Counted from the first letter of the stretch, positions 3,121 through 61,906 are shown. The stretch is 64,000 nucleotides of DNA from an uncultured Bdellovibrionales bacterium (GCA_964384235.1 CAYLJX010000004.1:15916-79915), one strand, 5' to 3'. Notes: generated by a model not told the origin, from the sequence alone. Translations and numbers: made by a program.

Positions 3121-3999
3121 TCACTTGAATGTTTCTCGTGTTTCCAAAAATTCCTCCAGCGCTTCGGTGTAGGGACGAAGCGGGATGAACTTGGTATTGC
3201 GAAGCGCGGAATACTTCGGGCGCTTGGCGGGACGAGGAAAGGCGTCGGGCGACACCGGCTGCACGGTGACGTCCATGCCGGCCAGTCGGAACAGTTCCTT
3301 GGCCGCCTCGTACCACGTCACCGCTCCTTCGTTGATAATATGATAGACACCGTAGGGTTTCTGATACATCTCGAGCACCTTGCTCGCAAGCGCGAGATCC
3401 GGCGCATAGGTGAAACAGCTCTTCTCGTCGTCGATGACGGTAAGTTCTTTCTTTTCCTTTGTCACTTCAAGCATCTTTTCAAAAAAACTTTTCTTTCCCG
3501 TCGCGGATGTCGCCGGTTTTCCAAACAGTTTGGAAAGACGAACAAGATACTGTTTGCAACCAGATGCGATCACGTTCTTCTCTCCTTCCCGCTTGCTCGT
3601 CCCGTACTTCGATATCGGATTCGGTTCGGCATCCTCCGCATAGCCTTCCTGACCCTCCCCGTCAAAGACGTAGTCCGTCGAATAGTGAATGAGCGTCGCA
3701 TCGAGATCCTTAGTCAGGCGTGCGAGAAATCCTGGCACCTCGGCATTAAGGAGCATCGCCTTGTGAAACTCTTCTTCGCTCTCTTCGCACAAATCGACGG
3801 CGTTGTACGCCACGGCGTTTATGATGAGCGCCGGACCGAAACTCCGGATCTTCCCTTCCGCTGTGACAAAGTCCGCGAGGTCTATATCCTCGACATCCCA
3901 CGCCGCGACCTCGTATCCCTCGTCTTCCCGGTACACGCGTGCGAGCTCCTGCCCCAGCATCCCCTTGGCTCCCAGTATCAGCACTTTCTTTCTTTCCAT
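3121..3999 (-). CDS. rmlD: dTDP-4-dehydrorhamnose reductase
   Basis: The Rossmann N-terminus MERKKVLILGAKGMLG and the rest match RmlD. The ORF track extends to 4020 (MRKITLSM...), but the start is placed at the internal ATG at 3997-3999; 4020 is the alternative. Confidence 0.85.
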   Translation of the reverse strand: MERKKVLILGAKGMLGQELARVYREDEGYEVAAWDVEDIDLADFVTAEGKIRSFGPALIINAVAYNAVDLCEESEEEFHKAMLLNAEVPGFLARLTKDLDATLIHYSTDYVFDGEGQEGYAEDAEPNPISKYGTSKREGEKNVIASGCKQYLVRLSKLFGKPATSATGKKSFFEKMLEVTKEKKELTVIDDEKSCFTYAPDLALASKVLEMYQKPYGVYHIINEGAVTWYEAAKELFRLAGMDVTVQPVSPDAFPRPAKRPKYSALRNTKFIPLRPYTEALEEFLETRETFK

Positions 4000-32933: not shown

Positions 32934-35735
32934 CTACAAGTATTTCGAAGTAAAGCTCTTCTTGCAAGATTTCAGTTTGTTCGGCGGACCGGCGAAGATG
33001 AGCTCGCCGCCTTTTTCACCACCCTCGGGACCGAGTTCCAGAACCCAGTCCGCCGAGCGGATGACATCGGTGTTGTGCTCCACCACAAGGACGGTATTGC
33101 CTTTATCGACGAGCGCTTCGAGCACTTCGAGCAGTCGCCGCACGTCCTCGAAGTGCAGCCCGATGGTCGGTTCGTCGAGGATGTAGAGCGTCTTGCCGGT
33201 CGATTTGCGAGCAAGCTCGGTGGCAAGCTTGATACGCTGCGCCTCACCGCCGGAGAGGTTGGTCGCACTCTGACCGAGGACGAGGTAACCGAGGCCAACT
33301 TCTTCGAGCACGCGGAGTTTCTCCTCGATCATCGGCTGATCAAGGAAAAAGCGTCTCGCCTCCGTCACGGTCATGCGCAGGATCTGGGCGATGTTCATCC
33401 CGCGGTACTCGATGGAGAGCGTCTTCATGTTGTAACGCGTCCCCTGACAGACCTCGCACGGGATATAGACGTCCGGTAGGAGGTACATCTCGATCTTTTT
33501 CAGTCCCCCACCCTGGCACGTCTCACAGCGTCCGCCGCGCATATTGAAGGAAAAGTGGCTGGCGGAATACTTTTCCCGTTCAGCCTCCGGCGTCGCGGCG
33601 AAGAGGTCGCGGATGAGCCCAAAGACCCCGGTGTAGGTGGCAGCGTTGGAGCGCGGCGTGCGACCGATCGGATCCTGCGTCACGGCGATCACCTTGTCGA
33701 TATGGTCGAGACCCGTGATCTTCTTGTGCGCGCCCGGCTCGGCCTTGGCATGATAGAAATGCTTGGAGAGCGCCCTCGAGAGGATGTCATGGACGAGGCT
33801 CGACTTGCCGGAGCCGGAGACTCCGGAGACCGCGACGAGCATCCCGAGAGGGATCTTAGCATCGACGTTTCGGAGGTTATGCTCCGTCGCGCCGACGATC
33901 TCAATGGACTTGCCGGATCCTTTGCGGACTTTTTTCTTGGAAGAGACGCTTCGCTTACCGGAGAGGTACTGGCCGGTCAGGAGTTTGGAACGCATGAGCT
34001 TTTCCGGCGTCCCTTCGAAGATGACCTCGCCGCCCTCGCTCCCCGCACCGGGACCCATGTCGATGATATAGTCCGCTCGGCGCATGATGGCGACATCGTG
34101 CTCCACGACGACGAGGGAGTTGTTGGCCGAGCGCAGTTCCTCGAGTGCATTGATGAGCTTCTCCGTATCGCGGCTATGCAGCCCCACCGACGGTTCGTCC
34201 AGGACATAGATGATGCCGGAGAGTCCCGACTTCATCTGGACCGAGAGACGGATACGCTGCGCCTCGCCGCCGGAAAGGGTGTCAGCTCCGCGGGAAAGTT
34301 CGAGATAACCGAGACCCACCTTTTCCACCGAACGCACACGCATCTCCATCTCACGGAAGAGCGGATCGACGATGTCTTTCTCCCCGACTTTGAGAAGCGC
34401 CTCGCGCAGGGGTTTCAGTTCCGTGAGAAATTTCTCGACACTCCGGTCGACGATCTCGTTCATGGAGAGGCCGTTCACCTTGACCGACAACGATTCGGGC
34501 TTGAGCCGCTTGCCCTGGCAGTCCGGGCACGTCTTGGAAAGCATGTAGGTCTCGATCTCGGCGCGCAGATGGTCGGATTTGGTATCGCGGTATTTCTGCT
34601 CGAGGATCGGGATGACGCCGGGAAAAACATTTTCTTTCCCTCCCTCCTCTCCGAAGAGGACGAGCTTCATCTGCTTCGCGGACAGTTTCTTAACCGGGAT
34701 GTCGAGGGAAAATTTAGATTTCTTGGCGAGCTCACGAAGGAGCAACATCGGACCGCTCTGGGCGTGCCGATCACCGTTCATTTTGCTCCAGGGACGGATG
34801 GCACCTTCGGAAAACGAGAGGTTCTTGTTGGGGATGACGAGCTCCGGATCGAATTCCAGTGTCCGCCCGAGACCCGAACACTTTGGACAGGCCCCTTCGG
34901 GAGAGTTAAAGGAAAAATGACTCGGGGTGAACTCGGGCAGATGCACGTCGCACTCCTCGCAGCGGTACTCCTCGTTGTAGACGCGTTCCTCACCAGAACC
35001 GTTGATGCGAAGCGTGAGCGTCCCCTGTCCGACACGAAAAGCAGTCTGCAGGGAATCCAGGATGCGCTCCTTGTCCGGACGGACGGCGGAGAGCGCCATG
35101 CGATCGATGACGATACCGATGGTCGAGATATCCGAAGGAGAGGCTTCCGCAATAGCCTCGGCGATGGGGCGGATCTCGCCATGGAAGAGCACCCGAACAT
35201 ACCCCCACCCGTCGATCTGTGAGAGCACTTCTTTCTCCGTCTTTTCCACGAGGAGCGGACTGTAGGCCAAAAACGCGAGCGGCGTCTCATCGGGCAGAAG
35301 CAGGATCTCGTCGAGGATTTCCCGCACGCTCTTGCGTGAGAGCGTCTTGCCACACTGAGGACAATGTGGGACACCAAGCTTGGCGAAGAGGATACGCAGG
35401 TAGTCGTAGACCTCGGTCATGGTGCCGACCGTCGAGCGCGGAGAGCGCGACACGCTCTTCTGATCGATGGAGATGGCCGGCGAGAGGTTGTGAATGGCGT
35501 CCACGTCCGGCTTGTCGAAGCCTTCCATGAAGTTTCTCGCGTACGAGGAGAGCGATTCGACATAACGGCGGTTGGCCTCTGCAAAGAGCGTATCGAAGGC
35601 GAGCGATGACTTGCCCGAACCGGAGAGTCCCGTGATGACGACAAGCGAATCACGCGGGATATCGACCGAAACGTTCTTGAGATTATTGACACGCGCTCCC
35701 CGGACTTCGATCACCGACTTCTTGTTGTTTGGCAT
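32934..35735 (-). CDS. uvrA: excinuclease ABC subunit A (canonical, with insertion domain)
   Basis: 933 aa. Two ABC modules ([19 protein letters not shown]), zinc-finger cysteine pairs, and about 100 aa of insertion-domain region between CPKCSGLG and CPDCQGKRL. Confidence 0.9.
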
Positions 35736-35828: not shown

Positions 35829-37166
35829 CTACCGCAGGAATTCCTTACCGCGACGGCGGCGATGAAAGACGATGGCAAAACGGTGGGCTTCGCCGTTCGC
35901 GAGGAGGATGTCTTTTTTGAAACGCTTGACGAGCGACTGGTCGCCGACGAAACTTTTCGGCTGGTGTCGCTCGTCCTTGACGACACCGAGCACGGGAATG
36001 GTGAGGTGCACTTGTCGCAGGACCGAGAGCGCGACGCTCCGCTGCAGTTCCCCTCCGTCTACCACTATCATATCCGGAAGCGACCATTCGGTATGCCCGA
36101 GACGCCGCGTGAGGATTTCCCTGAGAGCCGTGAGGTCGTTTCCTTGGTGATCGCCTCGCAGACGGAATTGCCGATATTCGTCCTTGTCCGGTCGACTCCC
36201 CTCCACTACTGTCATGACCCCGACGCTCGCCACTCCCTGGAGATGTGCCACGTCATACGCCTCAATCCGAATTCTTGATTCTTGATTCTCAATTCTTGAT
36301 TCTTCCTTGATGAGCGCTATATCCTGGATATGTTGCAACCCGTAGAGGGTGTTGCGAAGCTCGGCCGCCCGTTCGAATTCCATCGCCTTCGCCGCCGCCT
36401 TCATTTCCCGCTCGAGACCCTTCACGAGTTTCTGCTTGTGCCCCTCGAAGAAGAGTCGGATATGCTGGATGGTCCGGCCGTACTCCCGTACGCTCACCTC
36501 TCCCGTACACACCCCGGGACACAGTCCGATCTGCCTGTTGAAACACGGGCGCACGCCTGTGTCCCGGACTCGATCCGGGACCCTCCCGTTACCACGAGAT
36601 CCCGAATCGCGCTTCGCTTGTCCGGGATGCTTCGCCGTTCTTTCGAACGGCTCGCATTTGTCCCTATACGGAAACAGTTTTCGCACGATCTTCATCGCCT
36701 CTTTCAGTCCCAGTCCCGAGAGGAACGGACCGAACATGTATTTCACTTTCGCGTCGAACTTCCCCTGCTCGATGTCTCGGCCGCGAACGATGAGCACCCG
36801 CGGGAACGGCTCGTCCGTGATGACGACATGGTTGTAGCTCTTGTCGTCCTTGGCGTCGGTGTTGTAGGGCGGCTGATGCTCCTTGATGAGACGCGATTCG
36901 AGGATGAGCGCCTCAAGGACCGAATCGGTCTGCCGGTAGGCGATGTACGAGACCTTGGGCAGCATGAGCGCGATCTTGGGGCCTCTCGTCTCCATCAGGT
37001 CGCTTGCGAAATAGCTCCGCACCCGGTCGCGCAAGGACGTCGCCTTGCCGATATAGAGGAGCGTTTTGGTCTCATCCAGGAAGAAGTACACCCCTGGATG
37101 CTCCGGCAGGGCGTTCTTCTTCTGAAACGACAGAAGCGTATGCGATTTTTCCCACAGTGTAGCCAT
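35829..37166 (-). CDS. uvrC: excinuclease ABC subunit C (short form, no C-terminal HhH pair evident)
   Basis: GIY-YIG motif (GVYFFLDE...[13 protein letters not shown]), UvrBC-interaction region and endonuclease domain. The start is placed at ATG 37166 (MATLWEK...). The ORF track's 24-aa extension would overlap the divergent gene. Confidence 0.8.
36271..36305. repeat. tandem heptamer array (ATTCTTG)x5 embedded in frame in uvrC coding sequence
   Basis: attcttg attcttg attctca attcttg attcttc on the plus strand encodes ...[16 protein letters not shown]... in UvrC. It is the same unit family as the 10541-10640 intergenic element. Confidence 0.5.
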
Positions 37167-37214
37167 AAATCGTGTCAGTACTATTGACTTCCAAGATAAA
37201 AAGGAGTATAATGT

Positions 37215-37583
37215 ATGAAAGTTAATTTTACAACTCACTCACAAAGAAGGAGGTTGGTTGTGGGAAACAATGTCAACACTTACGACATGATGGCGAACGA
37301 AGTGTACACCGTCATGAAGTCACCGAAGGAATTTGATCTACAACTCTACCGGGGAGCATTCGCCACCGTGGCACATAGGCACGGGATATGGCATCATCAA
37401 TACGCTCCGACGTACAACCGCTATTTCAAGCAAGTGATGGACCGGGTAAAGAACCTCATCCAAAATCCTCGCGGACTACAACCGGTGACACCCTCCGCTA
37501 CTCTCACACCTCCCCCGACACATGTCTACCACCGGCAATATGTCGATAACAAGATGCTTGCCGCCGGCGACTACGACGACTGA
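37215..37583 (+). CDS. hypothetical protein
   Basis: 122 aa. AAAAGGAG RBS sits 8 nt upstream of the ATG. A clean intrinsic terminator lies downstream. An alternative GTG start lies at about 37259 after AAGGAGG. Confidence 0.5.
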   Translation: MKVNFTTHSQRRRLVVGNNVNTYDMMANEVYTVMKSPKEFDLQLYRGAFATVAHRHGIWHHQYAPTYNRYFKQVMDRVKNLIQNPRGLQPVTPSATLTPPPTHVYHRQYVDNKMLAAGDYDD

Positions 37584-51863: not shown

Positions 51864-52469
51864 ATGACCAAAGACAACAATCCACAATCCGAGGTGAAGC
51901 CTCTCCTTGAAAGAGTGGCGCTCGGGGCACCGAAATATGTCGGGTCGCCTGTTTCGCTCGTCCTCCACACGATCTTCTTCGTGGGGATTTTCGGCTTGCA
52001 GTTCGTCGGCTTCGGCTTCGACCAGATCATGCTCATCCTCACCACGGTCGTCTCGCTCGAGGCCATCTACCTCTCCATCTTCATCCAGATGACGGTCAAC
52101 CACCAGGCCAAGCAGATCGAGGAAGTGAGCGAGGACGTCGAGGAGATCAGCGAGGACGTGGAAGGCATCTCTGAGGACGTCGAGGAAATTTCCAAGGACA
52201 TTGATGACATCCAGGAGGACGTGGAGGACATTTCGGAAGACGTGGAAGAGATTTCCAAGGACATTGATGACATCCAGGAGGACGTCAAGGAAATCGGTGA
52301 GGACGTGGAGGAAATATCGGAAGACGTGGAAGATATCGGCGAGGAAATCGAAAAGGATGACAAGGAGTATACCGCCGACCGCACGCAGGACGTCCAAAAG
52401 ATCCAAAAAATCGAGGGCGTCCTCGAAGAGCTTCTGAAAGAGATCAGGGAGATGAAGGTACGCAAGTAG
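51864..52469 (+). CDS. DUF1003-family membrane protein with C-terminal acidic heptad-repeat tail
   Basis: The N-terminal two-TM core with LILTTVVSLEAIYLSIFIQMTVNHQ matches the DUF1003 pattern. The C-terminus carries (SEDVEEI)-type 7-aa repeats x11. Confidence 0.65.
   Translation: MTKDNNPQSEVKPLLERVALGAPKYVGSPVSLVLHTIFFVGIFGLQFVGFGFDQIMLILTTVVSLEAIYLSIFIQMTVNHQAKQIEEVSEDVEEISEDVEGISEDVEEISKDIDDIQEDVEDISEDVEEISKDIDDIQEDVKEIGEDVEEISEDVEDIGEEIEKDDKEYTADRTQDVQKIQKIEGVLEELLKEIREMKVRK
52118..52355. repeat. 21-bp (7-codon) tandem repeat x11 with a 63-bp higher-order duplication, inside gene 51864-52469
   Basis: EEVSEDV EEISEDV EGISEDV EEISKDI DDIQEDV ... The 35-nt string atttccaaggacattgatgacatccaggaggacgt occurs at both 52187-52221 and 52250-52284. 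Confidence 0.75.
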
Positions 52470-52546: not shown

Positions 52547-53638
52547 TCAGGGAGACGAGGACTGCACCACGAACTCACGCGTATCGTGATCGAAGCGAAG
52601 TTTCTTCTTCCTGTCCTCGAACGGCATATCCCACTTGTACAGCCGACCCCGTTCATCGGCGGCACGGATGATTTCCCGCATCCGCCATGGCCGCAGGAGC
52701 GCGACCGTCCCGATAGCGATGCCGCTCGCCCCGGCATGCCAGAGCTCCGCTACGTTGGCGGCATCCTGGATGCCGTTGCCGGCGATGATGGGGATCCTGA
52801 TACCGGCCTCGCGTGCCTCCCTCGCCTTTTCGCGGGTGAGGTGAAAGCACATCGGCCCGGAGAGACCTCCTTTCTTGGTAGACGTGACAGGATCCTCGTC
52901 GAAACGCCTCGGCAATGCCGAGAGGCCCCCTTGTTCCAGATAGCCCCAGTCGATCTCCGGCGTCGAACCCCACGGAATCGCGTTCGCGATCCAGAAGGCG
53001 TCCGCCAGATGTTCGACCGTCGTCAGGACTTTCACCGGAACCAGCGCATTGAGATTGACGATGAGCGGGATGCCGAGGTACCGAAGCGCTTGCAGCACTG
53101 CGCCTATCATGCCGTAAAGCGTGGCAGGATCGATGCCGGTGTTGGGACAGGCGAAGTTCACATGAAGCGCCACCGGTCCCTTGAAATGTCCGAGATGCGG
53201 TTGGAACCGCCGGACAAATTCCTCCGCCTGGAGAACCATATCCGATGAAAAATCTCCCTTGGGCATAAAGGAAAGCATGATCGGATCGGTCCGCCGCTGC
53301 CATACCCCCTTCTTGAGAAGCGCGTCCATACCGGGATTGGTCAACCCTACCGTGTTTACGATGTGGCCGCTCTTGGGATACGCCTTGATACTCCTCGGGA
53401 GCCACTCCTTAGGATGAAGGTCCGGCCGTAACGGGGTGTTGCCGACGTTTGGCTCGAGCGTCATGGTCTTGGCCACGAAACTGCAGCCGCCCCACGTATA
53501 TCCGAGAAACAACTTCCAGAGCCACGAGTACCAGTACTCATTCTCGCAGAAAAACCCACGGGCTCCGGGAGCGTTGAATGCGTATCCGAATTCCACGTCG
53601 ACGCCCGCATATCTTCCACTTCTTGGTTTCAGTTTCAC
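52547..53638 (-). CDS. dihydroorotate-dehydrogenase-like TIM-barrel flavoprotein (divergent, with N-terminal extension)
   Basis: NTVGLTNPG, FACPNTG, and the C-terminal IIAGNGIQDAANVAELWHAGASGIAIGT FMN-binding pattern. Confidence 0.55.
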   Translation of the reverse strand: MKLKPRSGRYAGVDVEFGYAFNAPGARGFFCENEYWYSWLWKLFLGYTWGGCSFVAKTMTLEPNVGNTPLRPDLHPKEWLPRSIKAYPKSGHIVNTVGLTNPGMDALLKKGVWQRRTDPIMLSFMPKGDFSSDMVLQAEEFVRRFQPHLGHFKGPVALHVNFACPNTGIDPATLYGMIGAVLQALRYLGIPLIVNLNALVPVKVLTTVEHLADAFWIANAIPWGSTPEIDWGYLEQGGLSALPRRFDEDPVTSTKKGGLSGPMCFHLTREKAREAREAGIRIPIIAGNGIQDAANVAELWHAGASGIAIGTVALLRPWRMREIIRAADERGRLYKWDMPFEDRKKKLRFDHDTREFVVQSSSP

Positions 53639-53732: not shown

Positions 53733-53780
53733 CACAAAAAAGACGAAAGCGGGCCGTGATGTTCTACGAGCCCGCTTTTG
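53733..53780 (-). terminator. rho-independent terminator (minus strand) ending the ogt-ydjC-uvrA2-small-gene transcription unit
   Basis: Stem agcgggc / gcccgct (53748-53754 and 53770-53776). On the minus strand it is followed by UUUCGUCUUUUUUGUG. Confidence 0.55.
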
Positions 53781-53792
53781 CTACCAACTGGA

Positions 53793-54140
53793 TCAGGAAG
53801 ATAGGAAGCGTCGTTCCTTGGTATAAAGTCGTCCCTCCAACGTATCCCGCTGGAAAACGATATAGAACTCGTGTTTGCATCTGTCTCCCCTGAAACGATA
53901 GGTGACCCTTGCCAAGTACACACCCGGATGTGTTTCCGGTTTGATGGGAAACCTCCCGAAGGATATTTCCCTTCTTGCTTCCGGATCAGTCCGGCCGTAA
54001 TGATATTCCAGAACGATGGCGAGTATCTTTTCACGGAGAATTCTCTCGCACGTTTTCCTGCAGGAAGAACTCTTCTTCCGAAACTCCACTTTCTCTTCCG
54101 GAGTAAAGGAAATTCTCACGCCAGCAATTTCACGTTGCAC
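53793..54140 (-). CDS. hypothetical small protein (GTG start) downstream of uvrA paralog
   Basis: Strong RBS GGAAGGAGG sits 6 nt upstream of the GTG at 54138-54140. 115 aa. No motif was recognised. Confidence 0.5.
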   Translation of the reverse strand: MQREIAGVRISFTPEEKVEFRKKSSSCRKTCERILREKILAIVLEYHYGRTDPEARREISFGRFPIKPETHPGVYLARVTYRFRGDRCKHEFYIVFQRDTLEGRLYTKERRFLSS

Positions 54141-54202
54141 GATAGACCTCCTTCCTTGTCGCGTTGTTCAAGAACCGCCCCCAACCTATTAGTCCCCAGT
54201 CT

Positions 54203-56797
54203 CTACCCTCTTTTCCCTGTTGTCAACACCTTCTTGAGATACATACCGGTATACGAGCCGGTTTTGCGGGCGACTTCCTCGGGCGTGCCATGGGCGACGA
54301 GCTTGCCGCCGCCCGATCCGCCTTCCGGTCCGATATCGATGACATAGTCGGCGCTCTTGATGAGATCCATGTTGTGCTCAATGACGAGGACGGTATTACC
54401 CTTCACCACGAGACGTTCGAGGATCTCGATCAGTTTCTTGACATCCTCGTAGTGGAGCCCGATGGTCGGCTCATCGAGGAGATAGATGGTGCGCTCGATG
54501 TGCTGGCGGTAGAGCTCGCTCGCGATTTTCACGCGCTGCGCTTCGCCGCCGGAGAGCGTGGTCGCGGATTGGCCGAGCTTGAGATAACCGAGACCCACTT
54601 CGTTGAGCGTCTTCAGCCGGTCGGCGATGGCCGGGATGTCATGGAAGAACGCGTAGGATTCCTCGATGGTCATCTCGAGCACCTCGTAGACGTTCTTGTG
54701 CTTGTACTTGACCTCGAGGGTTTCCTTGGTGAAGCGCTTGCCATCGCAGACGTCGCACGTCACGTAGACCGTCGGGAGAAAGTGCATCTCGACGGCGATG
54801 AAGCCGTTCCCCTCGCACGTCTCGCAACGCCCGCCGGGACGATTGAAGGAAAAGCGGCCGGCGCGCCACCCCCTGACCCGCGCCTCTTCCGTCGAGGCGA
54901 AGAGGTCGCGCACGTGCGTCCACGCGCCGGTGTAGGTGGCCGGATTGGAGCGAGGCGTCCGACCGATCGGACTCTGATCGATGAGGACCGCGCGGGAGAG
55001 GTACTCGCTCCCGGTGAACGTCTTGCAATGGAAGGTCTTGTTGGATTTGTAGCGGCGGTCGAAACGGGTCTGGAGGTTCTTGTGGATGATCTCGTAGAGA
55101 AGGGTCGACTTGCCCGAGCCGGACACGCCCGTGATGACGTTGAAGCGTCCGAGTGGGATGTCGACGTTCATGTTCTTGATATTGAAGAGCTCTCCGCCGC
55201 GGACCTTGAGCTCGCCCTTTTCCTTGGTCCGGCGGGTCGCCGGGACAGGCACGCGCGTCTCGTCACGCAGGTATGAGAGCGTGAGCGACCCCGATTTGTT
55301 CTTGGGCGCGGTGAGGAGCTCATCGAGAAAACCGGAAACCACGACGCTTCCGCCATGGACGCCGGCACCGGGTCCGATATCGACGATGTAGTCCGAGGCG
55401 AAGATCGTGTCCTCGTCATGCTCCACCACGATGATGGTGTTGCCGAGGCTCCGCAGGGCCTGGAGCGTCTCGATGAGCCGCTCGTTGTCACGTTGGTGCA
55501 GACCGATGGTCGGTTCGTCGAGGACGTAGAGCGCGCCCACGAGCTGGGAGCCGAGCTGCGAAGCGAGCCGGATACGCTGGGCCTCGCCGCCGGAGAGTGT
55601 GTTGGCCCGACGATCGAGGGTGAGATAGTTGAGGCCGACATTGAGGAGAAACTGCAGCCGCGAGCCGATCTCACGGAGGACCACCGCGGCGATCTCACGC
55701 TCACGCTCGGTGAGATCGAGTCCGTCGAAAAAATTCCTCGCGTCTTCGGTGGTGAGCTTGGTCAGTTCGACAATGTTTCGTTTGCCGACGAGGACGTGGA
55801 GCGCTTCCTCGCGCAGACGCGTCCCGTGACAGACCTCACACGGCTCGTCGCCGAAAAAGTGCTTGGTCCCGAGACCGTTGCAGGCCTCACAAGCACCATA
55901 GGGAGAGTTGAAGGAGAAAAGGCGCGGCTCGACCTCCGGATAGGAGAAGCCGTCATAAGGACAGGCGAACTTGGCCGAGAGGACGAACGGATCCGCACCA
56001 AGATGGATTTTCACGAGACCTTCGCTCTCCTCGATAGCGCGCTCCACCGCTTCGGAGAGACGCTCGCCGGACGTCTCGGGAAACTTCTCGAATTCGATGA
56101 GCGGCACCTCGTCGACGATGAGGTCGATGTCATGCTTCTTGTTCTTGGAGAGGATGACCTGTTCGCGCAGGCTCTTGCGCTCGCCGTCGAGGAAGATTTC
56201 CGAGAAACCTTTGCTCAGGGCATTGTAGAGGAGCTGATAGTACTCCCCTTTGCGGCCGCGCACCACCGGTGCCGTGATGATGAGCGAATCGTTTTTTTTC
56301 TTCGGCGAAACAAGAGCTTTCTTCATCCGTTCGCGCACGATCTCGAGCATCTCCTCGGTGGAGAGCTTTTGGATCTCGCGGTTGCAGACGAGACAGTGCG
56401 GCCGGCCCAACCGTGCGAAGAGCACGCGCAGGTAGTCATAGATCTCCGTCACGGTAGCGACCGTCGACCGAGGGTTCCTGCTCGCGGACTTCTGGTCGAT
56501 GGAGATGGCCGGTGAGAGACCGACGATCTCGTCCACGTCCGGCTTCTGCATGGTATTGAGGAATTGCCTGGCATACGCAGAAAGCGACTCGACGTAGCGG
56601 CGCTGCCCCTCGGCGAAGATCGTATCGAAGGCCAGGGAGGACTTGCCGGAACCAGAAAGACCGGTGAAGACGACCATCTTGTTCCGTGGCATCTCGACGG
56701 TGATGTTCTTGAGATTGTGAGTGCGCGCGCCCTTCACGACGATCCACTCAGAGGGTTCGTGTTTCATTGGGGTCATGTTTTTCGATGATTTGGACAT
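54203..56797 (-). CDS. uvrA: excinuclease ABC subunit A paralog lacking the insertion-domain segment
   Basis: 864 aa with both ABC modules and zinc-finger cysteines. After CEACNGLG...CEVCHGTRL the sequence continues directly into the signature region. The paralog at 32934-35735 has about 100 extra residues at this position. The N-terminal start is uncertain (56797, 56776 or 56767). Confidence 0.85.
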
Positions 56798-56858
56798 ACA
56801 AAAAAAGAAGCTATTGGTCCGTCAGTATACCCCGAAGCGAGGAAAGAATCAATGTTCG

Positions 56859-57554
56859 TCAGAAATACTCTCGGATCAGACGGTACTCGTCTTCACGCTC
56901 GGGATGGACGACGAGTTCGACCGTTCCAGCGGGAACCGTCTCGAAAAAACGCTTCGGATCGGAAAGCCAATCGAGACTCATCATATAGTCGGAAGTAGGA
57001 AGCGGCATCTTTGCATGCATATCCCGTGTGCGTCGCCACAGGACTGAGAGAATTCTTCCTACGAAAGTATTCGTGTGATTGAACATGCCCTGCCGTCCGA
57101 ACCGCACATATCCTATGCCGTATTGCTCCGCCAGCCCGAGAAACACGCGAAAGAATTTCGGAAAGTAATGGATATGCTCATGGGAGTTCAATCCGTCCGG
57201 CAGACGGCCGAAGAGTTCGCGGAAACGCTCTATCTGTACCTGCCACTGCTCTTCGGCGTGCCGAGCCGTCACCTGACCGGTGAGATAGCGCCAGGTAAAA
57301 CTCATGCCACGGAAAAAAGCGCTCCCCCGGACGTTCGTTCCGCTCTTCAGGAAATCGATGAGTTCCAGATGGAGATCGATCTTGACGCCTGTCTCGAGGA
57401 GATCAGCCGCCTCTTCGGGTGTCGTGAAATGGATGAGCACCGCCACACGGTCCAGTTTTCCTTCGCGAGCCAAATGCAAAATCGGCCGGGAAGTCTCCCG
57501 GATACCGTAATCGTCCGCCGTAAGGATGAGTTTGGAACGGATGTCTGCTGTCAT
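56859..57554 (-). CDS. ChbG/YdjC-family carbohydrate deacetylase
   Basis: LILTADDYGIRETSRPILHLAREGKLDRVAVL matches the YdjC N-terminal metal site. 231 aa. Confidence 0.75.
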   Translation of the reverse strand: MTADIRSKLILTADDYGIRETSRPILHLAREGKLDRVAVLIHFTTPEEAADLLETGVKIDLHLELIDFLKSGTNVRGSAFFRGMSFTWRYLTGQVTARHAEEQWQVQIERFRELFGRLPDGLNSHEHIHYFPKFFRVFLGLAEQYGIGYVRFGRQGMFNHTNTFVGRILSVLWRRTRDMHAKMPLPTSDYMMSLDWLSDPKRFFETVPAGTVELVVHPEREDEYRLIREYF

Positions 57555-57871
57555 GAGGTAAACGTTACCCTCCCATTCTCTATCCTTACTCCCTCCTTGG
57601 CAAGACGGCGTGCCTTTTCTGTGGAACCACCGCGATTGTACTCGCCGATACGCCCGTCAGACCGGACGACCCGGTGACACGGCACCGATTCGTCGAAGTT
57701 GTCCCTCATGACGGTCCCGACGGCGCGGGCCGCTCCGGGAAAACCGGCGCGCTTCGCGACTTCTCCATAGGAGAGTGTTTGGCCGCGTGGAATCTTTCGC
57801 ACGGTATCCCGCACTGCTTCCGCGAAATCCTTCTTATTCAGTTTTTTGATATGACTTTTCATATTTTCCAC
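57551..57871 (-). CDS. MGMT-family protein (O6-alkylguanine-DNA alkyltransferase DNA-binding/active-site domain only)
   Basis: 106 aa with VPCHRVVRSDGRIGEY (active-site Cys retained) and the HTH region. 4-nt overlap with the ydjC-like gene. Confidence 0.75.
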   Translation of the reverse strand: MENMKSHIKKLNKKDFAEAVRDTVRKIPRGQTLSYGEVAKRAGFPGAARAVGTVMRDNFDESVPCHRVVRSDGRIGEYNRGGSTEKARRLAKEGVRIENGRVTFTS

Positions 57872-58018
57872 TTCAATATACGTAATACAACAGTATCATA
57901 CGGTTTTTCCGTTTGTACATAATTTCTAACGACCGCGACAAATTATGTACAGGCTTCAAGAAACAAAAAACAAAAGAGGACTCCCTCTGAAGGAAGTCCT
58001 CTTTGAAGACCTGGCTTG

Positions 58019-59866: not shown

Positions 59867-61906
59867 TCAACCCCGTTTGCGGTGCGAACGTTTGCCGCCG
59901 AGACTTTCCTCCAGTGCGCGGATCTCATCGCGCAGGATAGCGGCCGTCTCGAAATCGAGCACTTTGACCGCCGCCTGCATCTCCTTTTCCTTCAGACGGA
60001 TGAGTTTCTGCGGATCCTTAGCAAAGATCTCCTGGTCCAGGACGACATTGGCACGAACCGCCTTGTCATGCTCGCTCTCGAGATGCTCGGTGATATCGTG
60101 GATGTTCTTCTTGATCGTCTGCGGCGTGATGCCGTGTTCTTGGTTGTATGCCATCTGAAGCGCCCGACGACGATTGGTCTCGTCGAGGGCATAGCGCATC
60201 GATCCGGTGACCGAATCGGCATAGAGTGTCACCCGTCCGGCGACGTTTCGCGCGGCGCGGCCGATGATCTGGATGAGTGACGTCTCGGAACGGAGAAACC
60301 CTTCCTTGTCCGCGTCGAGGATCCCGATGAAGGACACTTCCGGCAGGTCCAGTCCCTCGCGCAAGAGATTGACGCCGACGAGACAGTCGAATTCGCCCTT
60401 GCGGAAGGCGGTGAGGATCTTGATCCGTTCGATCGTCTTGATATCGCTGTGGAGGTACTCGGCTTTGAGATGTTTTTCCTTAAGATAGGTGCTCAGGTCT
60501 TCGGCCATCTTCTTGGTGAGCGTCGTCGCAATGACACGACCACCCTTTTGTATTTCCCGTTCTGCTTCCGCGATGAAGTCCTGGATCTGACCAGGATACA
60601 CTCCCTGTTCACGGATGGGGCGTACCACGACCTCCGGATCGAGGAGTCCCGTCGGACGGATGACTTGTTCGACGATCCGTGTGCTCGTTTCACGCTCCTC
60701 TTGTGAAGGCGTCGCCGAAGTGAAAACTATCTGTCCCACCCGCTCGACGAATTCCTCATAGCGGAGCGGCCGGTTGTCGAGAGCGCTCGGCAGGCGGAAT
60801 CCGTACTCGACAAGCGTCTTCTTGCGCGACTGATCGCCGGCATACATGCCCCGAAGCTGCGGCAGCGTCACGTGCGACTCGTCGATGACCGTGAGAAAAT
60901 CCGGCCGACCGTCGCTCGTGTGCGGGAAGTAGGAGAGAAGCGTCTCGGGAGGATCGCCCTGGTTCTTTCCGGAGAGGTGACGGGAATAGTTTTCGATACC
61001 GTTGCAGTAGCCGATCTCCTGGATCATGGCGAGGTCATAGTTGGTGCGACGCTTGAGGCGCTCGACTTCGAGGATCTTGCCTTCGGCTTCCAGAACCTTG
61101 AGCCGTTCGTCGAGCTCGAGACGGATCGATAGGATGGCGCGTTCCTGCTCGGCCTTGTCCGTGATGAAGTGCTTGGCCGGGAAGAGAAAGACGTTCTCGA
61201 GCGTGCCAAGGATCTTCTGTGAGACAGGATCGATCTTGGTGATCATCCCCAACTTTCCACCGACGATCTCGAGGAGGTAGATGAACTTCTCCGAGACCGG
61301 CATGATCTCGATACGGTTGCCGAGACTGCGGAACTGACCAGGACTGAGATCCGCATTGGTGCGCTCGAAGAAAATGGAGACAAGCTTGTGCAGGAGTTCA
61401 GTGCGCGAGCACGCCATCCCGACCTCGAGGTGAAGGTTTTCCTTCTTGTATTCCTCCGGGCTCCCCAATCCGTAGATGCACGACACCGACGCGACGATAA
61501 TGACATCCTGACGCGTGAGCAGGGACTGCGTGGAGGCGTGCCGCAACCGGTCGATCTCCTCGTTGATGGCGGCGTCCTTCTCGATGTAAGTATCGGTCAC
61601 GGGGAGATAGGCTTCCGGCTGGTAGTAGTCGTAGTAGGAGACGAAGTAGTGCACGGCATGATCGGGAAAGAATTCCTGGTACTCCTGGGCGAGCTGGGCG
61701 GCGAGCGTCTTGTTGTGAGCGATGACGAGGGTCGGTTTACCGACGGCCACGATGACATTGGCCATGGTGAACGTCTTGCCGGAGCCAGTGACACCGAGAA
61801 GTGTCTGACGCGGCTCGCCTTTCTTCAGGCCGTCGACGAGCGACGCGATCGCCTGAGGCTGATCACCAGAAGGACTGAACTTGTTGTGAAGATTAAACAC
61901 GGACAT
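59867..61906 (-). CDS. uvrB: excinuclease ABC subunit B
   Basis: 679 aa. GDQPQAI, Walker A GVTGSGKTFT, the helicase motifs and the C-terminal UVR domain are present. Confidence 0.9.
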   Translation of the reverse strand: MSVFNLHNKFSPSGDQPQAIASLVDGLKKGEPRQTLLGVTGSGKTFTMANVIVAVGKPTLVIAHNKTLAAQLAQEYQEFFPDHAVHYFVSYYDYYQPEAYLPVTDTYIEKDAAINEEIDRLRHASTQSLLTRQDVIIVASVSCIYGLGSPEEYKKENLHLEVGMACSRTELLHKLVSIFFERTNADLSPGQFRSLGNRIEIMPVSEKFIYLLEIVGGKLGMITKIDPVSQKILGTLENVFLFPAKHFITDKAEQERAILSIRLELDERLKVLEAEGKILEVERLKRRTNYDLAMIQEIGYCNGIENYSRHLSGKNQGDPPETLLSYFPHTSDGRPDFLTVIDESHVTLPQLRGMYAGDQSRKKTLVEYGFRLPSALDNRPLRYEEFVERVGQIVFTSATPSQEERETSTRIVEQVIRPTGLLDPEVVVRPIREQGVYPGQIQDFIAEAEREIQKGGRVIATTLTKKMAEDLSTYLKEKHLKAEYLHSDIKTIERIKILTAFRKGEFDCLVGVNLLREGLDLPEVSFIGILDADKEGFLRSETSLIQIIGRAARNVAGRVTLYADSVTGSMRYALDETNRRRALQMAYNQEHGITPQTIKKNIHDITEHLESEHDKAVRANVVLDQEIFAKDPQKLIRLKEKEMQAAVKVLDFETAAILRDEIRALEESLGGKRSHRKRG

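Follow-up and report, generated by a model that had tools for sequence, protein, structure and literature searches.

A uvrA-centred gene cluster in a Candidatus Moranbacteria genome as a putative variant of the Patescibacteria nucleotide-excision-repair locus

The closest described counterparts of the four packed minus-strand genes at positions 53793 to 57871 of a 64,000-nucleotide (nt) stretch of DNA (GCA_964384235.1, CAYLJX010000004.1:15916-79915; the whole stretch is called the window) are the DNA alkyltransferases, the UvrA damage sensors and the YdjC/ChbG hydrolases; the fourth gene is named orf115 here. Alkyltransferases of the AGT type (AGT, MGMT, Ogt, Ada) are proteins of ~165-207 amino acids (aa) in which an N-terminal domain precedes the C-terminal DNA-binding and active-site domain, and the known active AGTs without the N-terminal domain are fusions (AGT-EndoV and C. 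elegans AGT-2; PMC10779285). The alkyltransferase-like proteins (ATLs), such as S. pombe Atl1, E. coli YbaZ/eATL, and V. parahaemolyticus vpAtl, are free-standing domains of ~100-115 aa. By definition, they lack both the N-terminal domain, which is not strictly needed for transferase activity, and the active-site cysteine, which is usually replaced by tryptophan; they are inactive as transferases (PMC10779285), and both UvrA and UvrC are direct binding partners (PMC10779285; PMC7835731).

Class I UvrA proteins (E. coli, 2R6F, T. maritima 3PIH) comprise two ABC modules, zinc modules, a UvrB-binding domain, and an insertion domain of ~110 residues (PF17755). Class II proteins (D. radiodurans UvrA2, DrrC, Ecm16) have the insertion domain and are without the UvrB-binding domain (PMC3167621; PMC10192343). 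The engineered E. coli UvrA delta290-400 discriminated damage more poorly in global repair and still worked in Mfd-coupled repair, and the Bacillus protein with the corresponding deletion showed activity on short substrates (PMC3025350).

The cluster described here combines a UvrA without insertion domain, a free-standing alkyltransferase domain with an intact AGT active site, a YdjC protein, and the small protein encoded by orf115. With considerable reserve, we regard it as probable that the region represents the form which the nucleotide-excision-repair cluster of Patescibacteria takes in Moranbacteria, and hence a variant of known systems and not a new one. The nearest relatives of its UvrA were found in Patescibacteria only, and the best matches (75-86% identity) were metagenome-assembled genomes of Candidatus Moranbacteria/Moraniibacteriota. 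By this protein comparison, the host is an uncultivated Candidatus Moranbacteria bacterium (Patescibacteria/Candidate Phyla Radiation). The four genes, in the order of transcription, are:

57551-57871, minus strand, MGMT-like open reading frame, 106 aa when counted from GTG
56859-57554, minus strand, YdjC open reading frame, 231 aa
54203-56797, minus strand, uvrA open reading frame without insertion domain, 864 aa
53793-54140, minus strand, orf115, 115 aa from GTG

The stop codon of the MGMT-like gene and the YdjC start overlap by 4 nt (ATGA), and gaps of 61 nt and 62 nt separate YdjC from uvrA and uvrA from orf115, respectively. When the coordinates were re-derived, the four packed genes and these junctions came out exactly as a preliminary description of the window had given them.

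The cluster UvrA and the second UvrA of the window

The 864-aa protein exceeded the equivalog cut-offs of NF001503 (1236.5 vs 1147 bits) and TIGR00630 (1174 vs 730 bits) and carried the UvrB-binding domain (PF17760, E=4.7e-20, residues 167-265), while Pfam gave no match to the insertion domain PF17755. It scored 1028 bits against the class I protein 2r6f of G. stearothermophilus, with residues 16-312 corresponding to chain positions 21-303 and residues 313-859 to positions 417-957. This left ~113 residues of 2r6f (chain 304-416, the insertion domain) without a counterpart, as a clean cut between the halves of a zinc module. GSGKSS and LSGGEAQR, twice each, and the Cys pairs of the zinc modules were all present in the alignment. 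The protein therefore has both ABC modules, the zinc modules, and the UvrB-binding domain in common with class I UvrA and differs from it in the missing insertion domain, making it a natural equivalent of E. coli UvrA delta290-400.

The deletion junction had an identical length in all 80 genome loci recovered with the 864-aa protein, which came from Moranbacteria, Paceibacteria, Nomura-, Taylor-, Zambryski-, Campbell-, and Lloydbacteria, and others. The insertion-domain-less uvrA mostly stood inside a uvrB-uvrA-uvrC cluster, and 80 independent metagenome loci agreed, so that insertion-domain loss was found in every Patescibacteria UvrA recovered in the two sets (L001-L080 and L087-L166). A literature search found no paper describing an insertion-domain-less UvrA in Patescibacteria or the Candidate Phyla Radiation. 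Since uvrBAC clusters across Patescibacteria encode this type of UvrA, with relatives carrying its gene beside uvrB and uvrC, we infer that the 864-aa protein is a working, UvrB-loading damage sensor.

The cluster protein had previously been described as a UvrA paralog. This holds insofar as the window contains two uvrA genes, but the cluster copy is the standard Patescibacteria form and not an accessory class II type. Its likeness to class II proteins lies in the presence of a second, shorter UvrA-family gene in one genome. Its domain content is the reverse of theirs, with the UvrB-binding domain present and the insertion domain absent, and UvrA2 (2vf7) scored 601 bits compared with 1028 bits for class I. 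A class II (UvrA2/DrrC-like) paralogue was rejected on these grounds. The other copy is encoded next to uvrC:

32934-35735, minus strand, second uvrA, full-length, 933 aa, with UvrB-binding and insertion domains both present
35829-37238, minus strand, uvrC, 469 aa, with the second uvrA directly downstream

This pair, which makes up the remaining half of the repair system, lies ~17 kb away from the four-gene cluster. In seven relatives (L003, L006, L011, L017, L088, L091, L094), the uvrC/full-length uvrA pair directly follows the insertion-domain-less uvrA, which points to a rearrangement in the window genome as the source of the ~17 kb separation. A full-length uvrA beside uvrC occurred only in these Moranbacteria-type loci, and the best 120 homologues of the 933-aa protein (69-84% identity) were, as far as named, nearly all from Moranbacteria. 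As judged from these distributions, the lineage-specific extra UvrA is the 933-aa full-length copy and not the cluster copy. An origin of the two genes by recent duplication was rejected, since the two proteins scored 727 bits against each other and ~1000 bits each against Firmicutes UvrA.

The 469-aa UvrC contains GIY-YIG, UVR, and RNase-H-like endonuclease domains. Its sequence stops ~14 residues past the last of them, too early to accommodate the usual C-terminal helix-hairpin-helix domain. Its score lay just above the equivalog cut-off for uvrC (290 vs 285 bits), and its relatives matched to the same end point.

The free-standing alkyltransferase and the orf115 family

The MGMT-like protein matched PF01035 (E=7e-28, 96.8 bits vs 27) and TIGR00589 (73 bits, cut-off 46.4) over residues 15-95. 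With a length of 103-106 aa and a domain match that begins at residue 15, it is without the N-terminal alpha/beta domain. The start codon is more likely the ATG at 57862 (103 aa) than the GTG at 57871, because a public copy of the protein (P0004) has 103 aa. The active-site motif is PCHRV, and its Cys65 (counted from the GTG) aligns with Trp56 of S. pombe Atl1. Alignments with Atl1 and with M. tuberculosis OGT, the best sequence match in the PDB, gave Y35, R49, N58, C65, H66, Y78, and E93 as the key positions, and the residues matching Tyr114, Arg128, Asn137, His146, Tyr158, and Glu172 of human AGT were all retained. The Arg finger (AARAVG), the Y-x-x-G segment, and the Glu of '...EG' were also evident. 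Among the 120 closest homologues, which were Patescibacteria proteins with a median length of 89 aa annotated as 'MGMT family protein', PCHRV was present in every one and the other motifs in 113-120.

Compared with AGTs, the protein has the same DNA-binding and active-site domain, but it is shorter by the entire N-terminal domain, its loop in front of PCHRV lacks one residue and the usual N-P-x-P pattern, and it stands free where the AGTs known to be active without an N-domain are fusions. Compared with ATLs, it has the same free-standing layout, its residues 15-98 align end to end with Atl1 residues 5-90, the Tyr and the Arg finger are both kept, and its gene adjoins uvrA, a likeness by genome position to proteins that bind UvrA. 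Unlike ATLs, it and all 120 closest relatives retain the Cys together with the catalytic Glu and His. Assignment as an ATL was ruled out by the retained Cys65 and the full catalytic set; of the earlier description as a domain-only MGMT/ATL protein, the single domain with PCHRV stands and the ATL part falls. An AGT active site is thus set in the domain layout of an ATL, and the simplest inference is that the protein is a minimal but active suicide alkyltransferase, which would clear O6-alkylguanine-type lesions by direct transfer to Cys65. With the catalytic set retained, such direct reversal would require no hand-off to excision repair.

The 115-aa protein had been noted for a strong ribosome-binding site and the absence of a known family, and both points were borne out: the Shine-Dalgarno sequence GGAAGGAGG stands 6 nt before the GTG, and Pfam, NCBIfam, and PADLOC gave no match. 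A word-index search and an exact sequence look-up gave nothing, a metagenome scan with the orf115 alignment turned up no relative, and the family profile had no significant match among PDB sequences. In a full HMMER scan, P0001 (43% identity, E=3e-18) and P0003 (E=7e-6) emerged as homologues over the full length. The gene for P0001 (locus L081) comes immediately after a uvrA with 93% identity to the cluster copy, and it has the same Shine-Dalgarno sequence and GTG start, followed by the same terminator and then the same convergent gene. In locus L082 (region 896-1528), the gene for P0003, the most distant full-length homologue, stands just upstream of a gene for a Pif1/RecD-like helicase.

A profile search of the fetched loci added members directly after uvrA in L002, L004, L005, and L090, and members 0.8-1.4 kb further downstream in L007 and L089. 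The family thus has nine members in total, is restricted to Moranbacteria, and stands mostly directly after uvrA. Across the nine genomes, the motif pattern G..F, EK.L..IL..HG, W.H.F, and G.LYT..RR was found, and the protein is basic in eight of nine members (isoelectric point 9-10.7; 9.9 for orf115). Between genomes in which UvrA is 93% identical, orf115 is 42% identical and is consequently fast-evolving. The possibility of a spurious open reading frame was rejected because the nine homologues keep position, Shine-Dalgarno sequence, and motifs. By these comparisons, orf115 is a real gene and represents a new small-protein family linked by position to uvrA. The helicase of L082 (GEAGSGKTH ... 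DEISML ... GDFFQLPPV) is, as a side observation, another DNA-metabolism neighbour of the family.

An AlphaFold2 model of orf115 (predicted local distance difference test, pLDDT, 76.5) begins with a beta-alpha-alpha arrangement, and a fold search with this predicted model pointed towards cystatin/NTF2-like folds; a single-sequence model (pLDDT 50) was uninformative. A ribbon-helix-helix or MobC-like protein, suggested by the N-terminal 'VRISFTPEEK', is not supported: seven members gave no Pfam match at E<=1, no PDB sequence matched, and the fold search led elsewhere, although the beta-alpha-alpha start of the model is compatible with it. As a guess, orf115 might be an accessory protein that binds nucleic acid or UvrA.

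Boundaries, transcription signals, and conservation of the linkage

The signals in and around the cluster, together with the nearby uvrB, are as follows:

about 53733-53780, minus strand, cluster-end terminator, hairpin AAAGCGGGC...GCCCGCUUU followed by a U-run
56824-56852, minus strand, predicted sigma-70-like promoter TTGATT-17-TATACT in the YdjC-uvrA gap, from a promoter scan
57914-57951, strand not assigned, perfect 12-nt inverted repeat TGTACATAATTT-N14-AAATTATGTACA, candidate operator
57973-58004, minus strand, upstream terminator, 14-bp stem followed by a T-run, -21.3 kcal/mol, z = -3.1
59867-61906, minus strand, uvrB with Pfam UvrB, UvrB_inter, and UVR domains, 3 kb upstream of uvrA

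An intrinsic terminator after the last gene had been claimed, and the hairpin with its U-run was recovered: the 68-nt stretch folds at -21.8 kcal/mol and is kept in the relative L081. It was skipped by the consensus scan because its loop is long, and its T-run extends into the -35 element of the promoter-like site (53732-53704) that precedes the following gene. The upstream terminator ends a unit running from uvrB to p114 and a secreted coiled-coil protein, and constitutes the 5' boundary of the four-gene cluster, which is therefore bounded on both sides. Neither internal gap contained a stable fold (folding z = +0.75 and +1.2).

The cluster had been proposed to be an operon. The layout agrees with this, since all genes lie on one strand with short or overlapping junctions, no internal terminator, and terminators at both ends. 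What speaks against a single unit is the conserved promoter-like site inside the YdjC-uvrA gap. Its consensus, TTGAT[A/T]-17-TATACT, was kept in eight genomes, with TTGA, TA...T, and the 17-nt spacing invariant amid diverged surroundings; the same -35 and -10 elements and spacing occurred in L001, L003, L005, L006, L009, and L011, and more loosely in L013. In relatives without the motif, the YdjC-uvrA gap was only 9-30 nt. Because of this conserved site, the four genes probably do not form one obligatory transcript. On sequence grounds, uvrA and orf115 can probably be transcribed from their own predicted promoter, with possible read-through from upstream, and orf115 is probably co-transcribed with uvrA. 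The 12-nt inverted repeat lies 43-80 nt upstream of the MGMT start, after the upstream terminator, where it overlaps the expected place of a -35 element. It was rejected as a conserved operator, being absent in relatives and without a second copy in the window.

Conservation of gene order was counted in 19 Moranbacteria-type loci with enough upstream sequence; the window is excluded from these counts (with it, MGMT reaches 13/20):

MGMT just upstream of uvrA, 12/19 Moranbacteria loci
YdjC upstream of uvrA, 15/19 Moranbacteria loci

The gene order is thus partly conserved in relatives, a check that the preliminary description had called for. YdjC was present without MGMT in three of these loci, MGMT without YdjC in one, and neither in three. 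The 4-nt MGMT-YdjC overlap was limited to the window genome, with gaps of ~30-100 nt in relatives. In ~140 other Patescibacteria loci, the profile search gave a flanking MGMT open reading frame in L164 only, where a 106-aa PCHRV alkyltransferase (3362-3682) stands directly upstream of uvrA with no YdjC between; the UvrA is 67% identical. This adjacency appears to have arisen independently. L164 is a 680-kb contig of a distant Patescibacterium, and its alkyltransferase has an insertion after the active site. Elsewhere, the short MGMT was found in a tight, partly overlapping trio with a PD-(D/E)XK nuclease (PF12705, solo-Cas4-like) in front and a uracil-DNA glycosylase behind, in three other Patescibacteria lineages:

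L083, 4195-5943, nuclease-MGMT-uracil-DNA glycosylase trio
L084, 4213-5947, the same trio
L086, 4214-6125, the same trio

The short MGMT would accordingly always be found among repair genes, its partnership with uvrA being clade-specific with one independent recurrence, a pattern that is suggestive but not compelling.

The YdjC protein belongs to PF04794 (E=3e-26, 93.4 bits, gathering threshold 29.7). Its nearest solved structure is the chitooligosaccharide deacetylase 7vi8 (E=3e-7), with which the metal-site motifs ADD.G and SH.H.H of the YdjC/ChbG family align. It does not qualify as either of the family's equivalogs, scoring far under the cut-offs of ChbG (48 vs 227 bits) and HpnK (39 vs 233 bits). 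From these matches, it is a predicted carbohydrate-deacetylase-like hydrolase. A literature search found no published link between YdjC and DNA repair, and the protein is most likely a passenger in the cluster.

On the 3' side of the cluster, a gene for a 363-aa protein (52547-53638, minus strand) follows with its own promoter-like site at 53732-53704. Only its C-terminal third gave a weak partial match to PF01180 (dihydroorotate dehydrogenase/TIM-barrel flavoenzymes, E=1.6e-12). The gene is missing from the same position in the close relatives L081, L009, and L072, so that what lies between uvrA and the convergent gene varies. The convergent gene (51864-52469, plus strand) encodes a 201-aa protein whose N-terminus carries a membrane segment and whose acidic tail repeats the unit E-D-V-E-E-I-S-x-D, and is kept (53-88% identity) 3' of the uvrA locus in several relatives. 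Anti-phage defence genes were considered for orf115, MGMT, YdjC, and the dihydroorotate-dehydrogenase-like gene and rejected, as PADLOC gave no matches.

Relations among the cluster genes and their meaning

In most Patescibacteria, uvrB adjoins the upstream side of the insertion-domain-less uvrA. In the window, p114, the secreted coiled-coil protein (283 aa), MGMT, and YdjC stand between the two. Under the reading of the region as a Moranbacteria version of the repair cluster, the ancestral arrangement would have been uvrB - uvrA (without insertion domain) - uvrC, as in most of the ~140 other loci. In Moranbacteria, two secreted/membrane proteins, the single-domain alkyltransferase, and YdjC would then have been inserted between uvrB and uvrA, and orf115 would have been added after uvrA in some genomes. 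Two nested transcription units probably result, one starting upstream of MGMT with read-through into uvrA, and the other comprising uvrA and orf115 from the uvrA promoter. The position of MGMT beside uvrA would most likely reflect co-location or co-expression of DNA-damage genes and not an obligatory hand-off, although a hand-off of lesions from the alkyltransferase to UvrA is possible.

Several observations weigh against this reading. The linkage could have been inherited as synteny within a single clade, given the three YdjC-only loci, the MGMT-only locus, and the three loci with neither. No convincing promoter was identified upstream of MGMT. The independent occurrence of a short PCHRV-type MGMT directly upstream of uvrA in L164 makes an ATL-like cooperation with UvrA possible, and since an insertion-domain-less UvrA discriminates damage less in E. 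coli (PMC3025350), the Patescibacteria protein may need helpers.

Alternatively, as the preliminary description had suggested, the genes may form a dedicated module for alkylation or bulky-adduct repair. The MGMT-like protein would then bind or flip alkylated bases and recruit UvrA like an ATL, with YdjC and orf115 acting in the same pathway. ATLs, which bind UvrA and UvrC (PMC10779285; PMC7835731), share the single-domain layout, and the end-to-end alignment with Atl1 fits the proposal, as does an adjacency to uvrA that is kept in 12 of the 19 Moranbacteria loci and arose again in L164. The absence of the damage-specificity domain from UvrA fits as well, its deletion in E. coli being tolerated if Mfd delivers UvrA (PMC3025350). 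On the other hand, the loss of cysteine that defines ATLs has not occurred, the catalytic set being present in 120 of 120 homologues; other Patescibacteria pair the short MGMT with the Cas4-like nuclease and the uracil-DNA glycosylase, away from uvrA; and the ~140 loci with the same UvrA type have no MGMT nearby. Moreover, uvrA has a conserved promoter-like site of its own, and YdjC is without a known DNA-related role. We consider a dedicated module unlikely. At the opposite end, the four genes may have no functional relation at all, their arrangement being a product of one-strand packing in small genomes and inherited synteny, with orf115 as a dispensable, drifting open reading frame. The insertion of p114, the 283-aa coiled-coil protein, and YdjC between uvrB and uvrA is in line with this, as are the gene content on both sides of uvrA, which differs among close relatives, and the low identity of orf115 (42% where UvrA has 93%), which is missing from most relatives. 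A mere accident of packing, however, would leave unexplained why orf115 keeps its frame, motifs, strong Shine-Dalgarno sequence, and position across nine genomes, why MGMT always has DNA-repair genes around it, in two distinct conserved settings, and why L164 has an independent MGMT-uvrA adjacency; in our opinion, this account is improbable too.

A more far-reaching explanation, to which we would assign only a slim chance, is that the Patescibacteria UvrA without insertion domain acts as a 'delivered' sensor that does not target damage by itself. Having lost the damage-discriminating domain, it would depend on lesion-bound partners such as the Cys-bearing alkyltransferase and orf115, and the full-length UvrA would carry out global repair. 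The alkyltransferase would serve as such a partner when bound to non-transferable bulky adducts or when already alkylated. If true, two UvrA proteins would share the work in a natural division of labour, and one alkyltransferase would perform both direct reversal and ATL-like recruitment.

If the region is a lineage version of the known repair cluster, the cluster itself is ordinary DNA-repair housekeeping, and its parts are natural minimal versions of well-studied proteins. Current models would remain unchanged unless biochemistry demonstrates cooperation between the cluster proteins. The most interesting elements are the insertion-domain-less UvrA with its second full-length copy, the Cys-bearing free-standing alkyltransferase, and the orf115 family. 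The free-standing Cys-bearing domain bridges the distinction between AGTs and ATLs and may serve as a scaffold for a very small self-labelling tag. The role of the insertion domain has so far been addressed only by engineered deletions, with conflicting results (PMC3025350), and an insertion-domain-less UvrA across the sampled Patescibacteria lineages, accompanied by a full-length copy in Moranbacteria, would represent a natural experiment on that role.

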